Shown piece by piece: positions 320 to 4,065 of a DNA stretch of 4,110 bases. The position numbers and the translations under genes are program-made. Under the pieces are notes generated by a model. It was not told the origin of the DNA, searched no databases, and worked only from the letters and a program-made list of their open reading frames with translations. This DNA is from a virus (Duplodnaviria > Heunggongvirae > Uroviricota > Caudoviricetes), in IMG/VR virus record IMGVR_UViG_2713896768_000025. One strand, written 5' to 3'. Position 1 is the stretch's first letter. Each line of letters opens with the position of its first letter.

Positions 320-379
320 TTATAAACCCTGGTTAAAATCCACACGATAAAAATGACAATGCAAGTATCTCATGCTGTT

Positions 380-404
380 GCCCGAACCTACTCGGGCTTT
401 TTTT
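380..404 (+). terminator. Rho-independent terminator, plus-strand orientation (orphan; no plus-strand gene upstream)
   Basis: GCCCGA (380-385), loop acctac, TCGGGC (392-397): a perfect 6-bp stem followed by T7 (398-404). Confidence 0.7.
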
Positions 405-410
405 GCATGT

Positions 411-435
411 AAAAAGGCTCCTGCGATGAGGAGCC
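411..435 (-). terminator. Rho-independent terminator, minus-strand orientation
   Basis: GGCTCCT (416-422), loop gcgatg, AGGAGCC (429-435): a perfect 7-bp stem. On the minus strand it is followed by U5 (rc of a411-a415). It sits back to back with the plus-strand terminator at 380-404. Confidence 0.75.
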
Positions 436-722
436 TGGATATATGCCTAATCTCTGTATACAGCATGATGCCGGGTGCCTCCCGGTGAATTCTGCAATGA
501 CCAGACAGAATCCGCAACTTGCCTATACAATACGCAACCAAACATCTGTCATTATGCCCCGCCGCCCAGGGGGATTCATCATGCAGGATTTTTTTAACAA
601 ACGCTCAGCATGTCAGGCAACAGTCAACTGCCTGAATTGTGAGGCATTTAACATTTCACTGCCCGGTGTCTTTCCTGTAATAAAAAGCCCGAAAAAGAGA
701 GTCAGGGCAGATAAGTGTGGTG

Positions 723-974: not shown

Positions 975-1002
975 GAGCCAAAAAATAATAATCAGATGAA
1001 AA

Positions 1003-1716
1003 TCAATAATCAAGCCCTTGCCTGGATACATATCTGTCTGGCGGGAAGCCATAATAGCGGTGAAATACAGAAATAAAGTAGGACCTGCTTGAATAACCGC
1101 ATTTTTCTGCTACAGCCTGTCCATATCCATACCGGGAACATAACATATTTACAGCAACACGCATCCGCTCTTCCAGCAACAAGCGACTGAACATGCCCCC
1201 TTCATTTTTCAGTTTTGTCTTTAACAAACTCTCACTCATATGCAACTGTAGAGCAATCGCACCAAGCGTCCAGCTTGCTGATATATCTGTCTGAATTATC
1301 GCCCTGACTTTGACACTTATGCTGGATAAACATCCACTTAAAAACAATGACATCCGTTCATCTGTTTCAAACAGAGACAGGCAGGCCATCATAAGAAACA
1401 TATCCGTGGCCTCTCCGGAAAATCCCTGGCTGGTAATTAAAGCCGCAGCCAACGCAGGATTGTTGGGTTCCAGCAACAGGTAAAGCGGAATGTCAGTCAG
1501 ACGAGTCCTCGTCAGCTTATGCTGACTTTCCAGATATTGACTTACGACGGATTCGCTTATATCAACAATTTTAACTTTGCCATAATGCATAAGGAAAAGC
1601 TCCCTGATGCATTTGGTGGCCAGAACAACTGAGCCTGGCTTAAGTGACAACGTATCCTTTTCAAGAAAAATATTAATTGGGGAGCAAACCATGATAACTG
1701 AACAGACAACAGCCAT
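1003..1716 (-). CDS. AraC/XylS-family transcriptional regulator, AppY/YdeO/GadX-like (the class of prophage-borne regulators such as PatE and PsrA/B)
   Basis: 237-aa ORF. The C-terminal roughly 100 aa form a typical double HTH of AraC type (WTLGAIALQLHMSESLLKTKLKNEGGMFSRLLLEERMRVAVNMLCSRYGYGQAVAEKCGYSSRSYFISVFHRYYGFPPDRY). The N-terminus MAVVCSVIMVCSP...KVKIVDIS parallels that of AppY (MDYVCSVVFICQS...KLRIVDID, from memory). No clear SD precedes the ATG at 1716, so the start is less certain than the frame. Confidence 0.88.
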   Translation of the reverse strand: MAVVCSVIMVCSPINIFLEKDTLSLKPGSVVLATKCIRELFLMHYGKVKIVDISESVVSQYLESQHKLTRTRLTDIPLYLLLEPNNPALAAALITSQGFSGEATDMFLMMACLSLFETDERMSLFLSGCLSSISVKVRAIIQTDISASWTLGAIALQLHMSESLLKTKLKNEGGMFSRLLLEERMRVAVNMLCSRYGYGQAVAEKCGYSSRSYFISVFHRYYGFPPDRYVSRQGLDY

Positions 1717-1751
1717 TATAATTTTACTTTCATTAGCAATTGGTTAGCTCA

Positions 1752-1782
1752 ATTATAGCCCCAAAAGGTAAATTATCATCAA
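1752..1782 (-). promoter_or_regulatory. Candidate sigma70 promoter for the AraC-family gene
   Basis: On the minus strand there is a perfect TATAAT (rc of 1752-1757) and a TTGATG -35 (rc of 1777-1782). The spacer is a long 19 nt. The predicted TSS lies about 30 nt upstream of the ATG at 1716. Confidence 0.35.
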
Positions 1783-1837
1783 CACATAAGCAAAGGACTG
1801 ACAGGTGTCGCCCCCCACCAGCCGCCCATTCACCACA

Positions 1838-1863
1838 AATAAAAAGCCTTCAGGACTGAAGGC
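1838..1863 (-). terminator. Rho-independent terminator, minus-strand orientation, overlapping the stop of the 65-aa ORF
   Basis: Positions 1846-1863 (gccttcaggactgaaggc) are self-complementary, giving a 7-8 bp stem with a tight loop. On the minus strand the hairpin is followed by UUUUUAUUU (rc of 1838-1845). The TGA stop (rc of 1850-1852) lies inside the stem. Confidence 0.75.
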
Positions 1864-2047
1864 GTCTGTAACAACCGCACTGATAGTCTGCCAGACCCGC
1901 CATAACAAGCTGGGTCAGTATTAACTGGCAGCGTTCGCGTGAAAGGTAAGTATTCTGCGCAATCTCCCCGACTGTCGCCGGTTCGGTAACGCTTAATTCA
2001 TCAAACACAACTCTGGCGGTTTCTGTCATATCCTGCTGTTTCAGCAT
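1850..2047 (-). CDS. Small (65 aa) winged-helix/HTH-like protein, PapI/FaeA-like in size and pattern
   Basis: ATG at 2047 is preceded by GGAAAGGG about 10 nt upstream. The segment ATVGEIAQNTYLSRERCQLILTQLVMAGL fits the helix-turn-helix plus recognition-helix pattern of small wHTH regulators (compare PapI ..[29 protein letters not shown], from memory). The gene ends in its own terminator. Confidence 0.6.
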   Translation of the reverse strand: MLKQQDMTETARVVFDELSVTEPATVGEIAQNTYLSRERCQLILTQLVMAGLADYQCGCYRRLQS

Positions 2048-2191: not shown

Positions 2192-2229
2192 GTTTAAGTT
2201 GTGTGGCGAAGTAACCACTCTTAACACGA

Positions 2230-2269
2230 TATAATACTTTTTGCGTACGCGTTAGGATTTTTATAAACT
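2230..2269 (+). promoter_or_regulatory. Candidate sigma70 promoter(s) for the AT-rich two-gene cassette
   Basis: Option 1: TTGCGT (2241-2246), 17 nt, TAAACT (2264-2269), or TATAAA (2262-2267) with a 15-nt spacer. Option 2: a perfect TATAAT at 2230-2235 with no good -35. An 8-bp palindrome GCGTACGC (2243-2250) overlaps the -35 of option 1. The ATG at 2314 has only a weak SD (tGGAAtacac). Confidence 0.35.
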
Positions 2270-2313: not shown

Positions 2314-3159
2314 ATGAAAGTTAGAAGCATAGGATTTACAATAAATAACAATAACAAAAATATTAATACCGTTGACGTAATGAATGCTTTTATCAACGCA
2401 TCAAACAGAGAACACAGTCGCACAGACTATACTCGTAAAATTCTCATTTCGGATGTGAATGATTTCTATTATGGATTAGTTGTCACATTCAGAAACCAAA
2501 AAAAGAACTGTAAGTCGCAATTTGTTGATGGTAAATTCCAGCTTAAAATTGAAGATCTTCAAGGAAGTGACAAACTTGCTAATTTCAACTTTTTCTTAAT
2601 TAAAAAATCTAATCTTTCTGGTCTCTATATGTATCACCACGGTTCATGCAGTCTGAACACTCTCTTTTCTCATTTAGAAACAATAAGTAATGAATTTATC
2701 AGAAATCAAAATAAAGAAGAAATAAAAAAACTTGGTGATAAACCAAAACAAAAAGAAGTAACTGCAATAAATAAAAAATACAAAGAAAGACTGACTTTCA
2801 GCCTTATGACAAATAAAAACAACATTCAGAGTGTTTTATGTCAATTCAAAGAGATTAAAAGCACAAGCTTTAAATTTAATTATATAGATTTTAAAGGTGG
2901 ACCAATGACTGCGCTTGAACAATTTGTTAACACCACCACAATAGATATGAATTTTAATTCTAGCGACAGAACAAAAGTGCAACAACTATCTCAGAATCTT
3001 TCAAATATTTATAATTCTATGAGTGGAGTTGCTAAAGCACAGGTTATTGCAGTAAACCATGCAGGAATAGAAAAAACCATTGATTTTATGAACTGCCCTG
3101 TTTTTGATATGATAAAAGAAGAAATGCTGAACGGGACGAATAAAAATGCCTTTATATGA
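2314..3159 (+). CDS. 281-aa soluble protein of an AT-rich cassette; candidate distant RexA-like phage-exclusion sensor
   Basis: Long uninterrupted ORF in DNA of about 22-30% GC, where random stops would be frequent, so it is very likely real. No TM segments; Lys-rich central linker (aa 130-160). Size (281 vs 279 aa) and several motifs resemble lambda RexA as I recall it. Examples: aa 79-121 IEDLQGSDKLANFNFFLIKKSNLSGLYMYHHGSCSLNTLFSHL vs VEDIKNSLADDESLGFPSFLFVEGDTIGFARTVFGPTTSDLTDFL, and aa 158-188 ERLTFSLMTNKNNIQSVLCQFKEIKSTSFKF vs ERVQIEPLMRGTTKDDVMHMHFIGRTTVKV. CDS existence about 0.9; family call about 0.5. Confidence 0.7.
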   Translation: MKVRSIGFTINNNNKNINTVDVMNAFINASNREHSRTDYTRKILISDVNDFYYGLVVTFRNQKKNCKSQFVDGKFQLKIEDLQGSDKLANFNFFLIKKSNLSGLYMYHHGSCSLNTLFSHLETISNEFIRNQNKEEIKKLGDKPKQKEVTAINKKYKERLTFSLMTNKNNIQSVLCQFKEIKSTSFKFNYIDFKGGPMTALEQFVNTTTIDMNFNSSDRTKVQQLSQNLSNIYNSMSGVAKAQVIAVNHAGIEKTIDFMNCPVFDMIKEEMLNGTNKNAFI

Positions 3160-3694
3160 ATGGCTAATAAATAAAAGATTGAGGTATCAGTACCTTACAC
3201 TGCTTGCATTCTCGATCCTGGCATTGCTTGCACTTTACCTATTGTACAGAAACACACCTAAAGTAAGTGTTAACTTTTTTGAGTTTTATCATAAAAACTT
3301 ACGAGGCTATCTCTTCTCCGGTTTTATTTCCGTGGGCTCATTTTTATTGAGCCTGCATACCTTTGTCATAATAAATTTACGCGATAAGGTTTTTGCAACT
3401 CAGGAATATAAGGAAATTTATAGCATTGCCACTGGTATACCTATTGACAAAATCAATGATAGTGTACTTTATAAACCTTTAGACAATTTATCCTCATTTA
3501 TTAATACATCAATATTATGTTCTATCACAACAGCAATTGCACAATTCACTATTGGACTTTCAACTAATTTATATGCATGCTTATTTTGCGTATGGCTTGC
3601 AATACTAACGGTATTTCTTTTATTACATTGCCTCATCATAATCAGACAAAATATTAAAATTTTATTAAAGCAACAGAGAAAAAAAGGGGGGTAA
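3146..3694 (+). CDS. 182-aa four-TM inner-membrane protein; candidate RexB-like effector/partner
   Basis: Its ATG at 3146 lies 14 nt inside the upstream ORF (stop at 3157-3159), suggesting translational coupling. Hydrophobic segments at about aa 14-34, 55-78, 115-138 and 143-166. K/R clusters at the N-terminus, in the aa 79-114 loop and in the C-tail (RQNIKILLKQQRKKGG) indicate N-in/C-in topology. Motifs recall lambda RexB (four TM, 144 aa, from memory): YLLYR / YLLFR after TM1, and TFVIINLRDKVFATQEY / TFLIGSRTRRLAKIREY after TM2. Confidence 0.7.
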   Translation: MPLYEWLINKRLRYQYLTLLAFSILALLALYLLYRNTPKVSVNFFEFYHKNLRGYLFSGFISVGSFLLSLHTFVIINLRDKVFATQEYKEIYSIATGIPIDKINDSVLYKPLDNLSSFINTSILCSITTAIAQFTIGLSTNLYACLFCVWLAILTVFLLLHCLIIIRQNIKILLKQQRKKGG

Positions 3695-3701
3695 TTCCCC
3701 C
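3679..3701. terminator. Shared convergent terminator between the cassette and Q; strong in the minus direction, weak in the plus direction
   Basis: A7 (3679-3685), G6 (3686-3691), taatt (3692-3696), C5 (3697-3701). Minus-strand RNA reads GGGGGAAUUACCCCCC followed by U7, which is canonical, and starts 5 nt after the Q stop. Plus-strand RNA has the same stem followed only by UAAUAUUAC. The TAA stop of the 182-aa gene (3692-3694) is in the loop. Confidence 0.75.
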
Positions 3702-3706
3702 TAATA

Positions 3707-4048
3707 TTACAACATTGAAAGCACACCATCCAGAAAACCAAGAGCTGTTTGCAACTCTTTTCTTATTGTCCCATCAGAACACTTCTGCTTCTTTGCAATA
3801 GTTCTTAGTGAGATGCCGATAACAAAATGAGCAATAACCAACTCATACTCTTCGGGCTTATATTTCCGCAATCGCGCAACACAGCTGTCAATCATGATTC
3901 CTTCATCATCATCGCATTGTTGGCGTGTTTTCTTTCCATGAGGTAGTAAACCTTTAAACCCTGCAGCAACAGGCTGCCAGTCCACACCACTGTTATCTGC
4001 TGCAGCCCATGCACCCCAGCGGTCCAATACTTCATACATATCACGCAT
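3707..4048 (-). CDS. Q: Late-gene antiterminator Q (short QuuD/phage-82/21-type, Phage_antitermQ family)
   Basis: MRDMYEVLDRWGAWAAADNSGVDWQPVAAGFKGLLPHGKKTRQQCDDDEGIMIDSCVARL... closely parallels E. coli DLP12 QuuD ([34 protein letters not shown]...RPQCCDDDAMII.., from memory). The track start at 4063 is a TTG codon. I place the start at the ATG at 4048-4046 because GGAGA (rc of 4055-4059) lies 6 nt upstream, giving 113 aa. Confidence 0.9.
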   Translation of the reverse strand: MRDMYEVLDRWGAWAAADNSGVDWQPVAAGFKGLLPHGKKTRQQCDDDEGIMIDSCVARLRKYKPEEYELVIAHFVIGISLRTIAKKQKCSDGTIRKELQTALGFLDGVLSML

Positions 4049-4065
4049 CAACTTTCTCCACAAAA

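Follow-up and report, generated by a model that had tools for sequence, protein, structure and literature searches.

A psrB moron and a conserved late-operon winged-helix gene, usually partnered by a DNA methyltransferase, in a lambdoid prophage of Escherichia coli

Two types of prophage cargo described in Escherichia coli serve as reference for the locus analysed here: (i) the Psr regulators of strain EDL933; and (ii) the non-specific adenine methyltransferases of the O104:H4 strain C227-11. PsrB corresponds to z2104 in OI-57 (1,849,324-1,929,825) and PsrA to z1789 in OI-50, and the two proteins are reported to be 90% identical (two reviews; OI-57 coordinates from PMC8565820). The EDL933 Psr proteins bind and activate the gadE and hdeA promoters directly, with an increase in acid resistance, and PsrB represses LEE type III secretion indirectly via GadE and YhiF; PatE, GadW, YdeO, AppY and GadX all feed the same GadE/AR2 acid-resistance circuit (reviews). 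M.EcoGI and M.EcoGII, in turn, are two prophage-borne enzymes of 349 amino acids (aa), 95% identical to each other, which are silent in the lysogen and deleterious under constitutive expression, and which have close relatives in phage 1720a-02 and further enterobacterial phages (published description). Here, two minus-strand genes of a stretch of 4,110 nucleotides (nt) from the virus record IMGVR_UViG_2713896768_000025 (the window, that is, the whole stretch analysed) are compared with these systems: an AraC-family gene and a gene for a 65-aa winged helix-turn-helix (wHTH) protein.

Very probably, the AraC-family gene encodes PsrB in a swapped-in moron, and the 65-aa gene is a conserved late-operon wHTH gene with a methyltransferase as its ancestral partner. 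The window is 100% identical, an 81-nt gap excepted, to four complete E. coli chromosomes (DEC9B, JB2, F2_407_2_2 and 7_33_46A). In DEC9B, the matching region sits in a lambdoid prophage, with Q upstream and the tRNAs, nanS-p, lysis and head genes downstream. Read along the minus strand, the order is Q, a two-gene cassette on the opposite strand, the 65-aa open reading frame (ORF), the AraC ORF, three tRNAs, the nanS-p esterase gene, lysis and head; the window is the Q-to-lysis part of a lambdoid E. coli prophage, in the layout of a Stx-type phage without stx. Both ORFs were confirmed on the minus strand (1003-1716, 237 aa; 1850-2047, 65 aa) and both are annotated by RefSeq in the genomes identical to the window. 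Their placement between the Q and late-promoter side and the tRNAs, put forward in a first-pass annotation of this DNA, is borne out: the antiterminator gene Q (3707-4063; PF06530, Pfam E 2.5e-45; RefSeq annotation), which sets the direction of late transcription, and the genes for tRNA-Ile2(CAT), tRNA-Arg(tcg) and tRNA-Arg(tct) (723-974; ARAGORN, Rfam and RefSeq) all lie on the minus strand.

The AraC/XylS-type protein of the window is identical to the EDL933 protein WP_000301797.1 at 235 of its 237 residues (99%). When OI-57 was read from end to end in the re-sequenced EDL933 genome (NZ_CP008957.1), a single AraC-family gene was encountered (1,905,274-1,905,987), preceded by Q (DUF1133) and a 65-aa gene and followed by tRNA-Ile; the 65-aa protein encoded ahead of it is identical to that of the window at 63 of 65 residues. 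Because the window protein matches the product of the sole AraC gene of OI-57, and does so within the same gene order, its gene is identified by sequence as the psrB ortholog, that is, as an already known and characterised regulator. The psr family is present in 830 of the 5426 complete E. coli genomes, mostly at 99% identity or more.

The first-pass annotation had placed this gene in the AppY/YdeO/GadX group, with PatE and PsrA/PsrB as its kin, and full-length BLASTP homology agrees with that placement, with the addition that the protein is PsrB itself. Pfam matches correspond to a C-terminal double helix-turn-helix (PF00165, HTH_AraC, E 2.9e-13; PF12833, HTH_18, E 2.4e-09), and the sequence match in the PDB is the DNA-binding domain of GadX (3MKL, E 2e-18). 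PatE, AppY, YdeO, GadX and Psr, with comparator proteins taken from the MG1655 and EDL933 genomes, were all matched by BLASTP, the PsrB-type protein at 99% and the others at 29-41% identity: over residues 1-230, the values were 37% for the PatE candidate, 35% for GadW (E 2e-39), 31% for YdeO and 29% for AppY, and GadX reached 41% over its C-terminal half only. An N-terminal MxxVCSVI motif is common to the window protein, PatE, GadW, YdeO and AppY.

It might be argued that the gene is a distinct, new member of the AppY/YdeO/GadX group, with a regulon of its own. The NCBIfam scores point that way, since they lie far beneath the equivalog cutoffs: the best match is YdeO (E 2.9e-30, model positions 1-230 of 253) with 105.7 bits (cutoff 348), GadX scores 87.8 bits (cutoff 500), and no named member is reached at equivalog level. 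Likewise, the Psr name is absent from the source names of the AraC protein clusters searched, and the protein falls in PHROG 1450, labelled 'unknown function'. Against this stand the 99% match to the single AraC gene of OI-57, the identical gene order, and the fact that the window and EDL933 proteins share one 90% cluster of 2285 sequences, all of which makes a distinct member very unlikely.

As for the sister regulator, psr variants of about 90% identity are found behind other Q types, the 933N type included, in line with PsrA and with the 90% identity reported for PsrA and PsrB. The OI-50/CP-933N interval was inspected in the re-sequenced EDL933 genome (NZ_CP008957.1:1630000-1679000) and yielded neither an AraC gene nor a tblastn match; a TerB pseudogene and DUF3927 come after Q there. 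O157 genomes carry psr at two places per record; when a psr locus of the 90% type served as query, no O157 record ranked at the top of the list, and the second O157 copy was not located.

The mosaic structure of the locus delimits the psrB moron to 977-1779 (minus strand, 803 bp), where it replaces the methyltransferase cassette of related prophages. When compared with methyltransferase-type loci (the first OI-57 prophage of EDL933, and SfV), homology covers window positions 1780-2154/2194, breaks at about 1780 and restarts at 976, at tRNA-Ile. The segment in between contains a promoter-like site and psrB, and nothing else; its GC content is 41.6%, the wHTH module having 48.7% and the tRNAs 57.1%. 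The predicted sigma-70 promoter (1752-1779, minus strand) consists of ATGATA at 1779-1774, a 16-nt spacer and TATAAT at 1757-1752, with 10 of 12 consensus positions; this TATAAT had been noticed at the outset as belonging to the AraC gene. Promoter-like matches are not over-represented in the region (9 against 10.1 expected from shuffling), a point against the promoter, the motif alone being weak evidence. Its support comes instead from its location, which starts exactly at the upstream swap junction, and from its invariance among the ten sequence variants present in 31 psr loci. Because of the swap junctions, the lower GC content and the invariant promoter-like site, and as its absence from the homologous methyltransferase-type prophages also indicates, psrB can be regarded on sequence grounds as a genuine moron with its own promoter-like site, already known and as first annotated. 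The moron has no terminator of its own: no strong terminator precedes the tRNAs, which begin after a gap of 28 nt and may hence be co-transcribed from the predicted moron promoter in the lysogen.

The 65-aa gene had been taken for a second moron, a designation that its distribution contradicts. In the phage database, the gene is present in SfV (orf47), phiP27 (L23), many Stx2 phages, and Klebsiella and Citrobacter phages, always after Q. Neighbouring genes were typed by tblastn in 80 viral loci and in a further 36 taken from contigs of one genome per species; the gene is always downstream of, and co-oriented with, a Q gene, of which at least four unrelated types are represented. The wHTH module occurs in 2846 of the 5426 complete E. 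coli genomes (about half of them), in up to nine copies, and in at least 12 genera. In addition, the promoter scan found no promoter-like site between the upstream terminator and the wHTH ATG. The gene is, in consequence, the conserved first gene of a phage late operon and not a moron. The pair of psr and wHTH genes is found in 725 genomes, exactly the count of records with psr genes of at least 90% identity; this match indicates that psr is always behind wHTH, and wHTH mostly without psr.

The identity of the next gene (within 400 nt downstream) could be established for 75 viral and 34 species-level loci. In the viral set it was a methyltransferase in 41, psr in 30 and neither in 4, and in the species-level set a methyltransferase in 32 of 34 and psr in none. 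This last set reaches Escherichia, Proteus, Providencia, Mixta and Plesiomonas, with wHTH identity down to 41%. The usual partner is a beta-class PF01555 DNA methyltransferase of 349-352 aa. In the C227-11 prophage, Q is identical (WP_001205460.1), the 308-aa cassette protein (WP_000868396.1), wHTH gene and tRNAs are the same as in the window, and a 349-aa methyltransferase fills the slot held by psrB in the window; phage 1720a-02 carries the wHTH gene too. By sequence, then, the usual partner of wHTH is an adenine methyltransferase of the M.EcoGI/GII family, in agreement with the published description. A natural comparison of the two cargo types is provided by two adjacent prophages in OI-57 of EDL933, one with the order Q, wHTH, methyltransferase and tRNA-Ile (L092:11682-13204) and the other with Q, wHTH, psrB and tRNA-Ile (L006:24942-26092).

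The region between the wHTH and methyltransferase genes, of about 150 nt, is itself structured. RNAalifold, applied to 30 such regions (L096:3190-3345 and 29 others), predicted 33 pairs, ten of them with compensatory double changes, and a long-range stem that pairs with TGATCT just before the methyltransferase ATG. A Salmonella example of this leader folds at z = -3.4, and the region matched no Rfam family. In the RNAalifold model, conserved and covarying RNA structure encloses the start codon of the methyltransferase.

The 65-aa protein (1850-2047, minus strand) belongs to PHROG 331, the family of SfV orf47 and phiP27 L23. AlphaFold2 with a 33-sequence alignment (pLDDT 92.4) models it as a canonical winged helix with topology H1-S1-H2-H3-S2-S3, bare of any additional domain; a single-sequence model (pLDDT 52) was unusable, and the alignment-based one was used instead. 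The gene is under purifying selection (dN about 0.1 and dS saturated against the Salmonella and Kluyvera orthologs), and hardly any change is seen in the recognition helix, RCQLILTQL.MAGL, across the range from E. coli to Plesiomonas. The family is small, with 295 relatives in 90% clusters and, in a set of 1.84 billion proteins, 61 representatives at 50% identity; the named sources are all Enterobacterales or phages of Enterobacterales. PHROG 331 is labelled as of unknown function, and PGAP calls the family 'TrmB family transcriptional regulator'. Pfam TrmB scores 17.8 bits on the query against a cutoff of 25.6, all of the query's matches being below Pfam cutoffs; among the 33 members, TrmB is matched by 26, DprA_WH by 24 and MarR_2 by 20. 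PADLOC gave only a weak, stray match of the wHTH protein (SWIM_XIII, E 0.0034), which was disregarded.

The protein had also been described as PapI-like. The winged helix itself stands, and the assignment to the PapI/FaeA family does not. The alternative here would be a PapI/FaeA-type co-regulator, encoded by a host-directed moron, that works with Lrp at methylation-sensitive sites. The stand-alone winged helix is close to PapI in size, hhalign places helices H1-H3 on PapI, and the usual adenine methyltransferase neighbour recalls, superficially, the dependence of the pap switch on Dam. Nevertheless, no FaeA/PapI Pfam match was found in the 33 members (E <= 0.1), no PDB sequence matched at E <= 10 either with the single sequence or with the profile, and hhalign against PapI, whose sequence was verified against 2HTJ, stopped at a probability of 45%, with 19% identity over 43 columns. 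PapI is also missing among the top fold matches of the model, which are MarR, ArsR, IclR and BlaI-type wHTH domains; the MotA activation domain, SelB and Z-alpha appear among the fold matches as well. Finally, the PapI/FaeA context is that of a divergent partner to the regulator of a fimbrial operon, and the 65-aa gene is instead always first after Q in phage late regions. Since there is no Pfam or PDB sequence match and the hhalign probability is 45%, the 65-aa protein resembles PapI in fold class only and is not a PapI homolog; the co-regulator alternative is largely refuted and hardly credible.

Several non-coding elements accompany the wHTH gene, all on the minus strand, in a region where terminator-like sites are over-represented (16 found against 3.0 expected in shuffled sequence). 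The module opens with a tR'-like intrinsic terminator (2177-2189; GCCGCTGAGCGGT followed by TTTTTTG in the terminator scan), behind which wHTH is located. It is kept in nearly all aligned loci, with differing stems and behind different Q types. Upstream of it, the sequence changes with the type of Q, which is what Q-specific pR'/qut regions would show; at this place, several loci whose Q is of the 933N or SfV type contain AACGATGGG, which we take to be the lambda pR' pause element. A conserved leader of about 110 nt (2065-2176) follows, with the motif CTTGCTG..CAGAGTTA..TGTATGTCACG at 2071-2109; in alignments of five phages and of 20 sequences from diverse genera, this motif is near-invariant as CTTGCTG..CAGAGTTA..TGT.TGTCAC, and Rfam has no family for the leader. 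The first-pass annotation had credited the gene with its own Shine-Dalgarno sequence and terminator, and both were recovered: (i) the Shine-Dalgarno-like GGAAAGGG (2057-2064), 9 nt before the wHTH ATG, at whose position most aligned loci have a purine-rich stretch (mostly AAGG or GGA); and (ii) an intrinsic terminator over the wHTH stop codon (1846-1863; GCCTTCAG-TCCT-GAAGGC, a 7-bp stem, then TTTTTATTT), a hairpin maintained at the stop codon in other genera with different stem sequences.

Beyond it, the terminator-like scan found the remnant of a further element, 'hairpin 2' (1796-1823). Compensatory changes are seen in this hairpin in methyltransferase-type loci, the only ones where about 90 further nt of structure follow it; the window module is complete through hairpin 2, and from about 1780 the psrB moron replaces the rest. 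Within the hairpin, a G6 tract at 1811-1816 (a C run on the plus strand) precedes the -35 element of psrB by about 35 nt. The length of the tract ranges from about 6 to 9 residues across 31 otherwise near-identical psr loci, one variant of which retains the ancestral GGGTGTTAG. The tract could be slippage-prone, or it could mark a hairpin that has become dispensable and is decaying.

As regards the promoter that should drive this module, a candidate Q-specific late promoter and qut region lies at 2195-2265 (minus strand). Homology to the window reaches 2265 in prophages whose Q is related (89% aa identity) and is followed by a different insert up to Q; because it ends there with a different insert beyond, the candidate is placed in 2195-2265, with the cassette between Q and the promoter. 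Loci of phiP27, Salmonella and Mangrovibacter whose Q is of the window's family resemble the window over this segment, and loci with another type of Q do not. Directly after Q there is no room for a late promoter, since a GC-rich hairpin (AGGGGGAATTACCCCCCT) with a T-run occupies 3685-3702, on the minus strand 5 nt past the stop codon of Q; the 182-aa ORF of the cassette, on the plus strand, has its stop codon within this hairpin. Within 2195-2265 no sigma-70 hexamers were convincing, nor was any promoter in the conserved leader, and neither is claimed.

From these elements, the following sequence of events can be proposed. In the lysogen, transcription from the late promoter would end at the tR'-like terminator, and psrB would be made at a low level from its own promoter. 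On induction, Q-modified polymerase would read through 2189-2177 and 1863-1846 into wHTH, psrB (then at a high level), the tRNAs, nanS-p and lysis. The ancestral partner of wHTH would be the M.EcoGI/GII-family methyltransferase, lost in the window, with wHTH staying behind in the leader module. A nucleic-acid target is proposed for the wHTH protein because its recognition helix and the neighbouring motifs are both invariant: it may, we tentatively suggest, bind an invariant element of its own module and tune the late expression of the next gene. A wider reading, which must be regarded as unlikely, would make of wHTH, leader, Chi-bearing hairpin and methyltransferase-leader RNA an undescribed control module of lambdoid phages that times or limits the expression of a toxic, non-specific adenine hypermethylase of the M.EcoGII type and was co-opted before PsrB in psr-type prophages.

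Other roles are conceivable for the module. The wHTH protein could have a function independent of its neighbour (adaptor, anti-defence, or general late DNA-binding), or the module could be kept mainly as a Chi-bearing linker that promotes the exchange of Q and cargo modules, a pair of explanations that we consider rather unlikely. Winged helices also bind protein or RNA, as in the MotA activation domain, SelB and Z-alpha, and the wHTH gene is intact beside psrB in 30 viral loci and beside neither partner in 4. Nonetheless, a near-invariant recognition helix and invariant non-coding motifs suggest a fixed nucleic-acid target, and the pairing with a methyltransferase holds in 32 of 34 species-level loci at wHTH identities down to 41%. 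For the linker, two Chi octamers (GCTGGTGG) on the late-gene strand, at 1815-1822 (in hairpin 2) and 2131-2138 (in the leader), flank the wHTH gene, against 0.09 expected. The downstream octamer is retained by 75 of the 78 viral loci and by 25 of the 36 loci at species level. On either side of the module, the mosaic breaks fall a short way beyond the Chi-bearing elements, a hint that the module may act as a recombination linker. A pure linker, however, needs no ORF under purifying selection.

Some further points weigh against the combined interpretation of a PsrB moron behind a methyltransferase-associated wHTH gene. On the side of psrB, the window protein carries two substitutions with respect to EDL933 (A103V and V135A, window residue first), the expression and activity of this allele are putative, and z2104 was assigned to WP_000301797.1 by OI-57 position in the re-sequenced assembly, not through a locus-tag table. 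On the side of wHTH, the gene is intact beside psrB in hundreds of genomes without an adjacent methyltransferase, which could mean a methyltransferase-independent function; M.EcoGII works in vitro without a partner (published description), as the neighbour-independent role would have it. The viral loci were picked by high wHTH identity, and decayed copies are hence invisible among them. Finally, any binding target of the protein is hypothetical, and the late promoter was not located.

The divergent cassette (2314-3694, plus strand) is AT-rich (31% GC) and contains two genes, one for a protein of 281 aa, which has 308 aa in the genomes that match the window, and one for a protein of 182 aa that includes long hydrophobic stretches; the cassette is inserted between Q and the candidate late-promoter region. 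The first ORF lacks, in frame, the 81 nt that every matching genome has (L001:14314-15240). At the junction (3096-3105), the missing segment is bounded precisely by a pair of 10-bp direct repeats (CCCTGTTTTT), the pattern to be expected from slipped misalignment. The cassette had been called RexAB-like, a label that finds no backing in sequence-level searches: neither protein had a Pfam, NCBIfam (E < 0.03) or PADLOC match, and the first is assigned to PHROG 2802, whose label is function unknown.

The 65-aa protein had likewise been proposed as the local regulator of this cassette, acting through the 2048-2313 intergenic region. The divergent layout and the 266-bp intergenic region common to both in the window are in favour of this proposal. 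Nonetheless, the cassette accompanies the wHTH gene in only 3 of 107 loci (3 of 73 viral and 0 of 34 genome loci), for which reason wHTH is not its dedicated regulator; the cassette, rare as it is, is also present in the M.EcoGI/GII prophage of C227-11. In addition, the intergenic part 2048-2194 is conserved in phages without the cassette, and cassette-specific DNA begins at about 2266. Regulation of the cassette by the 65-aa protein is thus extremely unlikely.

Apart from these genes, two RNA matches were observed in the part of the window downstream of the tRNAs. The Rfam small RNA family STnc100 is matched over its full length at 405-613 (minus strand), between the tRNAs and nanS-p, with 175.6 bits (gathering threshold 47; E 4e-41). 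On the strand opposite to the late genes, the anti-sRNA AgvB (anti-GcvB) is matched at 345-404 (plus strand) with 56.2 bits against a gathering threshold of 56 (E 4e-9), and a weaker match to AsxR overlaps the same site.

In general terms, the finding is real and largely ordinary: one known regulator and one common, uncharacterised phage gene. The part of PsrB in acid resistance and type III repression is already published, and a new prophage background for it is an epidemiological detail and no new mechanism. The 65-aa gene belongs to the late operon, is very common, often with several copies in one E. coli genome, and is uncharacterised; its annotation as PapI-like or as a cassette regulator is unwarranted. 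The modest new point is that wHTH belongs with an M.EcoGII-type methylase and a structured leader. If wHTH does control the methylase, this would help to explain how phages use an enzyme that is harmful when constitutively expressed, and would place a conserved control point just upstream of the stx/tRNA/psr cargo slot of Shiga-toxin-type phages. In that event, read as part of a control module, wHTH could couple the output of PsrB, the tRNAs and the downstream late genes to induction.

When set beside the known systems, the locus is closest to that of PsrB in EDL933, with which it shares 99% aa identity and the neighbourhood of Q, 65-aa gene, AraC gene and tRNA-Ile. It differs from it in that the Q of the window prophage is PF06530 and not DUF1133, in the extra cassette, and in the occurrence of the window allele in DEC9B-type and other non-O157 strains. 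PatE (z0321, OI-8), GadW, YdeO and AppY share with the window protein full-length homology, the N-terminal motif and the C-terminal double helix-turn-helix, and GadX shares homology over its C-terminal half. These regulators, chromosomal or of DLP12 and, in the case of PatE, of a prophage, are paralogs and not the same protein, because their identity is 29-37% and their scores are far under the equivalog cutoffs.

The 65-aa protein, for its part, has its nearest equivalents in SfV orf47, phiP27 L23 and PHROG 331, which are 92-97% identical to it in aa sequence and are likewise encoded immediately beyond the terminator of the Q region; in SfV and phiP27, the next gene is a DNA methyltransferase, whereas in the window it is psrB. 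The same holds for the M.EcoGI/GII locus of C227-11, which is like the window in Q, 308-aa cassette protein, wHTH and tRNAs, and differs in having the methyltransferase where the window has psrB. With PapI/FaeA, the protein has in common that it is a small, stand-alone winged helix; it differs in the lack of any sequence or profile match to that family, in genomic context, and in a fold that is no closer to PapI than to hundreds of winged helices. Lastly, an analogy for the proposed mechanism, with no claim of homology, can be drawn with the controller (C) proteins of restriction-modification systems: in both cases, a small DNA-binding protein is encoded just upstream of a methyltransferase that is harmful if mistimed. 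C proteins are Xre-type helix-turn-helix proteins, not winged helices. Moreover, in contrast to the C-protein systems, there is no restriction enzyme here, and a terminator and a structured leader separate the wHTH and methyltransferase genes.

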